A DNA stretch of 63,626 nucleotides, the filler included, from Octopus bimaculoides (taxonomy: Eukaryota): the NCBI RefSeq assembly GCF_001194135.2. It is 8 parts of 8 records of this genome, joined end to end, with 100 filler letters (N's around TTAATTAATTAA, not from the genome) between each part and the next. Parts side by side here need not be neighbours in the genome. Positions count along the whole stretch, not along the records: positions 1 to 9,049 come from NC_068990.1; positions 9,150 to 20,399 come from NC_068989.1; positions 20,500 to 32,120 come from NC_068983.1; 5 more parts are not named here. The stretch is one strand, 5' to 3'. Shown here one piece after another: positions 8,080-30,969 of the stretch. The notes beneath the pieces are model-generated. The model did not search any database and was not told where the DNA came from. It was given only the letters and a program-made list of their open reading frames with translations. Made by a program: the position numbers and the translations under genes. Each line of letters begins with the position of its first letter. The stretch's first letter is position 1.

Positions 8080-8219
8080 ACATTCCTCCATGGCACAGGT
8101 TCAATTTGTGTATACAAATTTAATTTGCGGTCCATGGGAAGAGCCGTTTTAACGATGCGTCCTACCCAGCTCTTCGAAACGCCGGTGTTAAAACGGGGGT
8201 AGCTGATGAAGGAAAATGT
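8080..8219 (+). ncRNA. Candidate non-circularly permuted hammerhead ribozyme, predicted cleavage 3' of C8161
   Basis: GUC 8159-8161, GAAAC 8176-8180, CUGAUGA 8203-8209. Helix I CTACCC 8162-8167/GGGTAG 8197-8202; helix III GCGT 8157-8160/ACGC 8179-8182; extension CGTTTTAAC 8145-8153/GTTAAAACG 8187-8195; helix II GAAGAGC 8138-8144/GCTCTTC 8169-8175. Confidence 0.65.
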
Positions 8220-8572
8220 TCTCTATGTGGCTTGTGTGTTTTCTGTACTCTGATTATCATTATTTTCTTGTCTTCGTTTTGTTTGCAATGTCCTGTACCC
8301 AGATATGCACCTATACATACAGGTGGATGTAGGTATGCACATACCTGTACNNNNNNNNNNNNNNNNNNNNNNNNNNNNNNNNNNNNNNNNNNNNNNNNNN
8401 NNNNNNNNNNNNNNNNNNNNNNNNNNNNNNNNNNNNNNNNNNNNNNNNNNNNNNNNNNNNNNNNNNNNNNNNNNNNNNNNNNNNNNNNNNNNNNNNNNNN
8501 NNNNNNNNNNNNNNNNNNNNNNNNNNNNNNNNNNNNNNNNNNNNNNNNNNNNNNNNNNNNNNNNNNNNNNNN

Positions 8573-8609
<37 letters not shown>

Positions 8610-9149
8610 ACTTATACATACATATCGGTATGCTGATGACCTAGTAGTTTCTAAATTTATCGATATGTATGTATACATGTGTGTGATTGTACCTATATGT
8701 TTGCATCTATCTACACATGTGTATGTTCATATAGGTATAACATATATATGTTTGTGTGAGTGTGTGTGTCTATTTGTGTGTGCGTGTTTGTGTGTGTATA
8801 TGTGTTTGACAGTCTGTGTGCAGTTAAGTCTATTTGAAAGTCGTCTTGTTTTTAGAATACATATATTCTCTCTCCCCTCTCTCACTCTCCAATTCGCACA
8901 GCAATTTCCAGTTGTTTTTATAGAAATCAATATAGAAAGATCGATCAGTTCGTGAGGATATTAATTAATTAATGTTGCTGTATCTGCGCCAAAAAAAAAA
9001 GACGTATCATACACACACCTACAGACACACGCATATATATATATATATANNNNNNNNNNNNNNNNNNNNNNNNNNNNNNNNNNNNNNNNNNNNTTAATTA
9101 ATTAANNNNNNNNNNNNNNNNNNNNNNNNNNNNNNNNNNNNNNNNNNNN

Positions 9150-9975
9150 ATAAAGGTAAAGGTGACGCTTTAGATACAAATAATTACAGAGGTATCAAGT
9201 TGTTAGATCAGGTAATGAAAGTCACGGAGAGGGTCATAGCCCAACTAATTAGGGAGAGAGTCAGTTTAGATGAGATGCAGTTTGGGTTCGTGCCTGGGAA
9301 AAGCACCACTGATGCTACATTTCTGGTAAGACAGCTGCAGGAGAAATACCTAGCCAAGGATAAACCTCTATACCTGGCTTTCGTTGACATGGAGAAAGCC
9401 TTTGACAGGGTCCTCCGATCCCTCATCTGGTGGTCAATGAGGAAACTTGGGATAGAATAATGGCTAGTGAGAGCTGTGCGAGCCATATACAGAGACGCTG
9501 TCAGTAAAGTGAGGGTTGGCAGTGAGTACAGTGTAGAATTCCGGGTAGAGGTAGGGGTCCACCAAGGTTCTGTCCTCAGCCCCCTCCTATTTATTGTAGT
9601 CCTCCAGGCTATAACAGAGGAATTCAAGACAGGAGGCTCCTGGGTTCTCCTCTATGCTGATGACCTTGCACTAATTGCTGAGTCACTATCAGAACTAGAA
9701 GAGAAGTTTCAGGTGTGGAAGCAAGGACTAGAATCGAAGGGCCTTAGAATCAACCTAGCTAAAACCAAAGTCTTAATAAGTAGGAAGGTAGAAAAATCAC
9801 AAACACCTTCAGGTAGATGGCCCTGCTCGATCTGTAGAGAAGGTATAGGTAGAAACTCTATAAGATGTACCCAGTGCAAGCTATGGACACATAAGAGGTG
9901 CAGCAATATCAAAGGAAGGTTAACTAGGAAGTTAGTTTTTGTATGTGGCAGATGTTCAGGAGCAATAAAAACTCA
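9150..9975 (+). mobile_element. RTE-clade LINE reverse transcriptase fragment with C4HC3 (PHD-like) Cys cluster, one in-frame stop at 9458-9460
   Basis: KGKGD..NYRGIKLL, QFGFVPGKSTTDA, AFVDMEKAFDRV, GVHQGSVLSPLLF, LLYADDLAL, INLAKTKVL. ORFs 9200-9460 and 9467-10009 share a frame. Confidence 0.95.
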
Positions 9976-29911: not shown

Positions 29912-29961
<50 letters not shown>

Positions 29962-30032
29962 GTATGTATGTATGTATGTATGTATGTATGCATGCATGTA
30001 TGTGTGTTTATGTTTGTGTGTCTGTGTGACAG

Positions 30033-30831
30033 ATGACGAGATGGGAGGAACATGTTATTGAGAGGAAGATAGGTTGGGATGAGATATGGACGTAGACCAC
30101 ATCTCGACTAAGTTTTCTGATTTGTTCATCCTGCGATGTTTTGCTATCACCTACAAATCTAGTACGATTGAATGTCTCAGATAATAATACATGCAAATGC
30201 GGAAGGGTCGGAACACAGAAACATATTCTTTCCAACTGTTCATTAGCATTGAACAGGTATACATAGAGACACAGCCTGGTCTTTAAGGTTATCTTCAATG
30301 GTATAAAGAACCAAATTGATCACAACATCAATAAAAGTGAAAAAAAAACCGTTGAAAGTACCAACTAAAGATTTCATTACATTCGTGCGCTCAAGACAGC
30401 GGATCTGTTTCAAGAAGAACATCAAACTTCCTGTGTGCGATGAAAAGAGGAACAGCAATTGGGAGATGACTTCAGATTTACCAGGGTACCAGGGACTCTT
30501 TCTCATCTCATTTACGAAAAAAACCGACGTTTTAATGTGGGGTGAACGAAAGAAAGGTGTGAATTTAGTCGAGTTAACGGTCCCTCATGACGATAACATG
30601 GACGCCACTCGGGCTCGAAAGATTGACCGTTATGTAAACATCCTCGAGGAATGTGAAGGCACAGCCTGGAAAGCGGAGCATTTTCCAATCGAAGTTCGAT
30701 ATAGAGGGTTTGTTGGATGACTGTTGTTATCGTTAGGCTTAACTCATCGTAAAGTAAATACCACCATGACCGATATCCAAACTGCAGCGGAAAAGATTAG
30801 AGACGATGAGCGTTGGCTAAAGGAATATTGA
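30033..30831 (+). mobile_element. HERO-like (RLE-endonuclease) non-LTR retrotransposon 3' coding remnant
   Basis: TRWEEHVIERKIGWDEIW..SFLI.S.CDVL.SPTNL..CKCG.VGTQKHILSNC.LALNRY.*RH (CCHC knuckle), then WEMTSDL..TDVLMW..KGVNLVELTVPHDDN....RKIDRY..ECEG.AWKAEHFPIEV..RGFVG (RLE), ending AAEK..DDERW. Confidence 0.88.
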
Positions 30832-30854
30832 GCTGTATTTGATAACCAGTTGAT

Positions 30855-30969
30855 CTAGCAAGCGGGGCCTTATAAGAGTAAGGGATGGAGCCGGTGCGCA
30901 TTGGTGCCGTCGAGAGGTAGGCCCCGAAACTGCACGCATTCTCTCCTGATGACCCCTTACATTTGCTAG
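30855..30969 (+). ncRNA. Candidate non-circularly permuted hammerhead ribozyme in the HERO-like 3' UTR, predicted cleavage 3' of C30911
   Basis: GUC 30909-30911, GAAAC 30926-30930, CUGAUGA 30946-30952. Helix I GAGAG/CTCTC; helix III GTGCCGT/ACTGCAC (one mismatch); helix II GGGGCCT 30864-30870/AGGCCCC 30919-30925; extra helices GTAAGGG/CCCTTAC and CTAGCAA/TTGCTAG. Confidence 0.65.

Follow-up and report, generated by a model that had tools for sequence, protein, structure and literature searches.

A predicted hammerhead ribozyme with a split core at two loci of Octopus bimaculoides and in retroelements of separate lineages

Two short motifs in the genome of Octopus bimaculoides (assembly GCF_001194135.2) present the catalytic consensus of the hammerhead ribozyme in an unfamiliar order, which raises the question whether they represent a ribozyme class of their own, as the original prediction had it, or a hammerhead opened in another way. 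The DNA analysed, here called the window, is a stretch of 63,626 nucleotides (nt) of joined genome parts, of animal composition, AT-rich and microsatellite-rich with gaps, with locus 1 in NC_068990.1 and locus 2 in NC_068983.1. The hammerhead has been divided into the blocks S, G and C, assumed to be uninterruptible, with six possible permutations (Eckert 2023, PMC10085705). As read from their sequence, both loci are hammerheads with predicted cleavage in which the CUGANGA block is split at A9/G10.1 and the 5' strand of helix II lies upstream. The proposal of a new ribozyme class is not upheld, as the motif is a further opening of the reverse-order ring of the published types SGC, CSG and GCS; what is new is the topology, with self-cleavage activity a prediction.

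The complete form is found at locus 1, where B denotes the accessory helix, P0 an extra helix, Px a hairpin and the roman numerals the hammerhead helices, with lengths in base pairs (bp):

8080..8219, + strand: locus 1, complete split-core hammerhead (P0a-Px-IIa-B-IIIb-UC-Ia-IIb-GAAA-IIIa-B'-Ib-CUGAUGA-P0b)
8080..8087, + strand: P0 5' strand, partner 8210-8219, 8 bp and a 2-nt bulge
8088..8137, + strand: long Px hairpin, no spacer to P0a or IIa
8138-44, + strand: helix II 5' strand
8145-54, + strand: accessory strand B
8157..8167, + strand: block S with IIIb and GUC (8157-61) and Ia (8162-67), followed by a 1-nt link
after 8161, + strand: predicted cut
8169..8182, + strand: block G with IIb (8169-75), GAAA (8176-79) and IIIa (8180-82)
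8186..8219, + strand: B' (8186-95), Ib (8197-8202), CUGAUGA (8203-09) and P0 3' strand (8210-19)

The helix lengths first claimed for this locus were confirmed, with 6 bp in helix I, 7 bp in helix II, 10 bp in the accessory helix and 4 bp in helix III, and 29 bp cross the predicted cut. The descriptor first proposed was nevertheless incomplete, as two further conserved helices, P0, which closes directly past CUGANGA, and the Px hairpin, had been left out. The same parts are recognized in decayed form at locus 2:

30855..30969, + strand: locus 2, decayed split-core hammerhead in the 3' untranslated region, 24 nt past the stop codon, predicted cut after 30911
30855-62, + strand: outer P0 strand, partner 30962-69
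30864-67, + strand: inner P0 strand, partner 30953-56
30868-83, + strand: Px hairpin
30887-92, + strand: homologous helix II 5' strand GGAGCC, one A-C mismatch (5/6 pairs)
30893-98, + strand: accessory strand B
30904..30929, + strand: IIIb and GUC (30904-11), Ia (30912-17), IIb (30920-25) and GAAA (30926-29)
30930..30952, + strand: IIIa (30930-35), B' (30935-40), Ib (30940-45) and CUGAUGA (30946-52)

Helix III of locus 2 contains a C-U mismatch, and its pairing is not fully kept, contrary to what had been claimed. The strand GGAGCC directly precedes the accessory strand and aligns, in a structure-blind alignment, with GGGGCC of a related locus (L003). GGGGCCT at 30864-70, the strand first assigned to helix II, was rejected; it pairs at 7/7 positions but spans the P0/Px junction and is not the homologous strand.

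Searched on both strands of the window in the order first proposed, the descriptor matches locus 1 and locus 2 only, at the places and on the strand originally given, with CTGATGA at 8203-8209 and 30946-30952, GAAA starting at 8176 and 30926, and the U-C cleavage doublets at 8160-61 and 30910-11. The anticipated excess over shuffled sequence was found as well: core and helices I and III matched 26 times in 4192 local dinucleotide shuffles of 116,522 bases each, and demanding the upstream helix II left 0 matches versus the two loci. As a control, which is no proof of absence, two core-word scans of viral contigs with at least 25 loci each gave a helix I of at least 4 bp in 0/50 cases, and viral contigs searched with an alignment of relatives (A2) gave no match. 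An Rfam scan found no hammerhead in the window, only low-score microsatellite noise, and none in 20 related loci, with one unrelated weak match. The expectation that standard descriptors would miss the motif holds to this extent, but its core order S-G-C is that of the published type-SGC.

Is the architecture a property of these two loci only? Metagenome contigs were scanned for relatives of the open reading frame (ORF) at locus 2, and the best 80 of 131 related loci (numbered with L) were examined. Core and helices I and III were present on the + strand downstream of the ORF in 13 of these 80, seven of which passed the strict full descriptor, with one weak match on the - strand; L006, L057 and L058 came to light in a looser search, bringing the motif in sense orientation to 16 of the best 80 loci, so that the further families of the same topology that had been foreseen do exist and covary. 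With the two window loci these 16 make up a set of 18 instances with the conserved order P0a, Px hairpin, IIa, B, IIIb, NUH, Ia, 1-3 nt, IIb, GAAA, IIIa, B', Ib, CUGANGA, P0b. This order is S-G-C and does not correspond to the cyclic order C-G-S of hammerhead types I to III, and the accessory helix connects helices I and II at their distal ends (register by best pairing). The core elements CUGANGA, GAAA and NUH are present in both window loci and in 15/16 related loci, L057 having U at position 9, and N7 varies freely (U13, C3, G1, A1), as in hammerheads.

Pairing was compared over 15 instances, L017, L021 and L057 being left out as near-copies or decayed. Within families, pairs were kept at 73/75 positions in helix I, 73/75 in helix II, 57/60 in helix III, 71/75 in B, 59/60 in P0 and 60/60 in Px, versus cross-family fractions of 0.47, 0.60, 0.65, 0.47, 0.43 and 0.45, respectively. 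Several pair types occur at most positions, and all six helices covary; P0 and Px had played no part in selecting the loci. Covariation in every helix, as first claimed, is thereby retained, except that the pairing of helix II at locus 2 had rested on the wrong strand. In an upstream-shuffle test with 300 shuffles each, no more than five shuffles attained the score of the 5' architecture in 15/18 instances.

The placement of helix II distinguishes the split form from an ordinary type-SGC ribozyme. With the strand downstream of CUGANGA, helix II would comprise 0-2 bp in 15/18 instances and 3-4 bp in three, versus 5-8 bp with the upstream strand; the window loci reach 3 bp (locus 1) and 0 bp (locus 2), which together with the use of this strand in P0 rules out the canonical type-SGC reading for them. 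The base following A9 differs from G in 11/18 instances and position 11.1 is C in 17/18; in L016, L017, L019, L021 and L057 a G past A9 is still able to pair with C11.1, which would place the crossover one pair farther out. A greedy search for helix II selected non-homologous strands in 5/18 instances (locus 2, L008, L017, L024, L058) and was replaced by a position-limited search. In L008, L024 and locus 2, IIb can also pair with a strand that opens Px or spans the P0/Px junction, possibly as an inactive alternative fold.

Among known ribozymes, type-SGC (HRIMA-1 and variants, PMC10085705) shares with the split form the S-G-C order, the short link between Ia and IIb, the accessory helix between helices I and II and the full core. 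In type-SGC, IIa and the accessory strand follow CUGANGA, whereas in the split form both come first and CUGANGA runs into P0; only the split form has the Px hairpin ahead of IIa and the extra helix P0, and its 5' product is held by four helices versus one in type-SGC. Type-CSG shares the run IIa-accessory-IIIb-NUH-Ia-IIb-GAAA-IIIa, but its B'-Ib-CUGANGA stands at the 5' end, joined to IIa, and not unjoined at the 3' end. Both types cleave in vitro, type-CSG has been published from only two sequences, and type-SGC is known, according to the same source, only from metatranscriptomes and from no genome of a known organism; the published SGC descriptor permits one extra U at A9/G10.1 (PMC10085705). 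The term 'type-SGC' occurs in the searchable full-text literature only in Eckert et al. (PMC10085705). Small core insertions have been described, and variants with additional helices are mentioned without detail in the text available (PMC3088659, PMC10162972, PMC13725137). No description of the split topology or of hammerheads in HERO elements was found in the full-text literature, a scope that ends short of subscription papers, Repbase Reports, figures and bioRxiv supplements.

The element that carries the ribozyme can be named for locus 2 and its relatives, where the following features adjoin the motif:

30031..30831, + strand: decayed, 5'-truncated ORF end of a retrotransposon without long terminal repeats (non-LTR), of the restriction-like endonuclease (RLE) type
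30970..31005, + strand: conserved element tail past the ribozyme, similar in L001 and L003

The ORF fragment shows a CCHC knuckle at 30192, a D...E-x-T-V-P nuclease motif at 30526 and internal stops, with the last stop at 30829-31. It has 522 relatives at E<=0.001; relatives are single-ORF reverse transcriptase (RT) proteins, with RVT_1 in 7/8 long ones tested. By its predicted protein the host of locus 2 is an RLE-type non-LTR retrotransposon, a long interspersed nuclear element (LINE) with RT, CCHC knuckle and C-terminal PD-(D/E)xK-like nuclease, which is tentatively labelled 'Hero-like'. Close relatives of the element occur in lancelet and fish, both of which are included in the range of HERO (PMC9004415). 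The tail is directly followed, at 31020-31355 (+ strand), by the decayed remnant of a GIY-YIG endonuclease from a Penelope-like element (PLE), with a Pfam E of 0.002 and a match at 69% to a portion of an O. bimaculoides protein.

The distance between ORF and ribozyme in the related loci ranges from about 100 to 1700 nt. A quick tree of 76/81 nuclease domains (five short ones, among them L080, were dropped) placed the 16 rows with a full and three with a partial motif, partial copies being present in L027 and L007, inside one 31-row branch (SH-like approximate likelihood ratio test, SH-aLRT, 92, not starred), with the split form in 0/45 rows outside it. Most motif-negative rows of this branch end or break off short of the expected position; L010 and L056 are harder to explain. 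In another RLE branch, the near-identical L054 (2056-2135, + strand), L059 and L060 carry a canonical type-SGC hammerhead with an extra U after CUGAGGA, about 450 nt past the nuclease match, with 0.04 chance matches per shuffled set of 80 loci. A separate RLE branch (L011:1135-1300, L012, L014, L018, L032, L061) has a different conserved covarying 3' RNA with two-sided changes at 12/32 predicted pairs (five loci aligned) and no Rfam match in the four loci scanned; this RNA is probably pseudoknotted and is possibly another ribozyme.

A second lineage is provided by the Naiad PLEs, in which no canonical hammerhead was recognized and eight 'half-core' cases were flagged (Craig et al. 2021, PMC8557442). 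About the last 600 bases of 20 of the 54 published consensi were read by eye and unscored, each record being taken as the one before the named header. Of these 20 ends, four clearly show the split form (Naiad_Obim, Naiad_Ovul, Naiad-4_Dst, Naiad-2_Movir), and Naiad_Esco shows it decayed. The ostracod Naiad-4_Dst shows 10 bp in helix III, 6 bp in helix II, 4 bp in P0 and 7 bp in Px, and Naiad-2_Movir of a box jellyfish 6 bp in helix II, 7 bp in B, 9 bp in Px and 5 bp in P0. Four other ends, 'half-core' cases, read as type-CSG (Naiad_Parc, Naiad-3_Nbra, Naiad_Hpol, Naiad_Smim), and neither form was noticed by eye in the other 11/20. The putative ribozyme is, on these readings, conserved and shared by two unrelated retroelement lineages, RLE LINEs and Naiads. 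For different mobile elements as hosts, the original claim gains support from this recurrence, but it stays unproven for the two window loci, as locus 1 has no host match.

Locus 1 belongs to a repeat, aligned with reads and contigs at 80% likeness:

7922..8345, no strand assigned: high-copy transcribed repeat carrying locus 1, with (TA)n on the left and an assembly gap from 8351

The family is represented by 8154 contigs in one DNA run and, in about 6% of two RNA runs, by 3279 and 2557 reads, from which it follows that it is high-copy and transcribed; it is for this family that the suggested high copy number holds. For locus 2 no RNA run was listed, and the RNA reads are those of locus 1. Of the variants inside 8080-8219, 18 are among those listed (78 further rows, unphased). 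Eight of the 18 make up four two-sided changes that keep pairs in helices I, II, B and Px, such as C8094T/G8130A (Px), A8140C/T8173G (II) and G8146A/C8194T (B); four keep the pair one-sidedly and three are unpaired, and none of the 18 touches any of the 16 core positions. No match to a host ORF was found for locus 1 by Pfam, homolog search, Atlas (0.75) or self-BLAST. Compared with Naiad, the family has the helix I of the octopus Naiad consensus and a (TA)n flank, with no ORF match; three other window motifs were without Naiad match in the supplement of PMC8557442. A back-joint 8240 -> 8043 (three reads) and a contig joint 8161 -> 8286 are too thin for use. The segment 8287-8341 is common to another organism's run and in part resembles the region around the cleavage site of locus 1; it may be a second repeat of its own.

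What the ribozyme would do for its host is suggested by its position at unit junctions. L007 opens with the 3' part of the ribozyme and a tail that matches L004 at 91%, after which come the leader and the ORF, with the ribozyme about 190 nt before the ORF, and the like tail of L004 stands at the element end; downstream of the ribozyme in L024 lies the sequence with which L025 begins and which leads to its ORF, in a unit of about 6.3 kb, and the tail of L002 is followed by the leader motif of L007. This placement, on both sides of the ORF in some LINE families, suggests that the ribozyme may process tandem transcripts. An active ribozyme could instead serve 3'-end trimming, the destabilization of read-through or the provision of a 5'-OH leader for downstream ORF translation, as translation is reportedly aided by ribozymes at the 5' ends of retrotransposons (PMC13725137), the L007 ribozyme stands close before its ORF and the function of PLE hammerheads has been called unclear (Craig et al. 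2021, PMC8557442). We regard such a role as rather unlikely, since a cut at a lone 3' copy would strip the conserved tail found in insertions and copies flanking both sides fit unit excision more simply.

The reading we favour, with a probability of roughly 0.6, is that both loci hold the full hammerhead core in reverse block order and that the RNA would cleave itself after NUH, processing retroelement transcripts into unit-length copies. Taken separately, active cleavage is a prediction we hold to be quite probable, and a unit-processing role, if cleavage is granted, deserves the same trust. Several points weigh against this reading. Block C has been assumed to be uninterruptible beyond 1-2 nt (PMC10085705). 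The descriptor, relaxed for the helix III mismatch of locus 2, was tuned on locus 1 and locus 2, whereby the significance against shuffles is somewhat overstated, H17 other than G was built into it and best pairing decided the registers of II, B, P0 and Px. The 5' architecture is not significant in locus 2 (40/300), L057 (64/300) and L080 (120/300), and the minimum free energy of single folds is ordinary (z -0.79 to 0.65, with pseudoknots outside the scoring). Three of the 18 listed variants of locus 1 seem to break a pair, whose partners may be in the 78 further rows. At 8161 there is neither an end pile-up nor a depth dip in the two RNA runs, which are unstranded and consist mostly of diverged copies, and most mapped RNA consequently spans the predicted site. 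The tandem context comes from short metagenome contigs, possibly collapsed repeats.

Chance or overfitting of the descriptor could draw on its tuning, on z values near 0 and on the fortuitous earlier match for helix II of locus 2, but is refuted by the strand- and position-specific recurrence with covariation in 16 of the best 80 related loci, besides the 0/4192 shuffles and the 0/50 viral core-word matches, and is assigned a negligible weight. The spanning reads would also suit a hammerhead-derived, non-cleaving 3' fold that acts as a docking site for the RT of the element. LINE proteins, as in R2, recognize their own RNA in such a region, which is where the motif is placed; the strand past CUGANGA is held in another conserved helix, P0, and motif and tail are whole at the 3' ends of inserts (L004, locus 2), so that the copied template must have been uncut or re-ligated. 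Yet no helix is missing, as the covarying upstream strand supplies helix II, the catalytic residues do not change whereas every helix turns over, and the core recurs in the unrelated Naiads, with type-CSG in sister families, which is not expected of a docking site across two RT lineages. A docking site is considered improbable on this balance, and self-cleavage with unit processing remains the preferred explanation.

Structurally, A9 would continue into P0 and G10.1 would be provided by the upstream strand arriving out of Px, P0 and Px being stacked as a four-way junction on a nicked helix II, grafted at A9/G10.1; SGC, CSG, GCS and the split form would be four openings of one reverse-order ring. 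Cuts at two successive ribozyme copies would release one unit RNA, whose ends could re-form the ribozyme, held through P0, II, B and III. With 29 bp across the cut, as at locus 1, closure into a circle by re-ligation would be favoured, and such a circle, copied beyond one turn, would yield partial tandems as in Penelope pseudo-LTRs (pLTRs) and retrozymes. Circularization by itself is judged an even bet, and the entire scheme, in which an active split hammerhead with a four-way-junction clamp lets RLE LINEs and Naiads turn their RNA into unit circles through cutting and re-ligation, is tentative and somewhat below that. If true, it would account for insertions in partial tandem and for the report that Naiads are without hammerheads, and hammerheads of reverse order (split, SGC, CSG) would be a common overlooked feature of eukaryotic retroelements.

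Zebulon/HERO elements, reportedly described by Bouneau in 2003, encode an RT with a C-terminal restriction-like endonuclease and repeat their 3' end before the ORF as partial tandems; they are not known to carry a ribozyme, and the elements of the locus 2 type would be parallel to them and may belong to the same clade. The hammerheads of type I in Penelope-like pLTRs and in non-LTR retrozymes share with the split form the repeated retroelement end and the proposed cutting of tandem precursors, and retrozymes form circles (PMC8557442, bioRxiv 10.64898/2026.07.22.740005). Unlike the split form, they follow a standard circular permutation found by canonical descriptors; no report of type I hammerheads in RLE LINEs was found in the literature searched. 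The hepatitis delta virus (HDV)-like ribozymes of R2 and other non-LTR elements, reportedly described by Ruminski in 2011 and Eickbush in 2010, likewise are self-cleaving RNAs that free an RLE LINE from a longer transcript, but belong to another ribozyme class, are located at the 5' end and are kept whole after the cut.

The split form amounts to a natural, covarying seventh hammerhead arrangement that goes against the assumption of an uninterrupted CUGANGA. With it, non-circular permutations move from anonymous metatranscriptomes to animal genomes and are tied to named element types, and a direct answer is offered to the question why Naiads appeared to be without hammerheads. A testable mechanism is suggested for the tandem structure in RLE LINEs, relatives of the R2 elements under development for gene insertion, and a ribozyme with clamped products would be of interest for RNA circularization.

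Elsewhere in the window, a LINE fragment with an RT and a PHD-like finger (9152-10006, + strand) and another with an RT and an apurinic/apyrimidinic endonuclease (APE; 10175-11860, - strand) were recognized by Pfam, as were the exons of a tubulin gene (60103-61659, - strand). A dispersed repeat of about 350 nt occurs at 52646-53011, 54784-55149, 22740-23076 and 51610-51745 and includes a 98% inverted pair around 1.8 kb.

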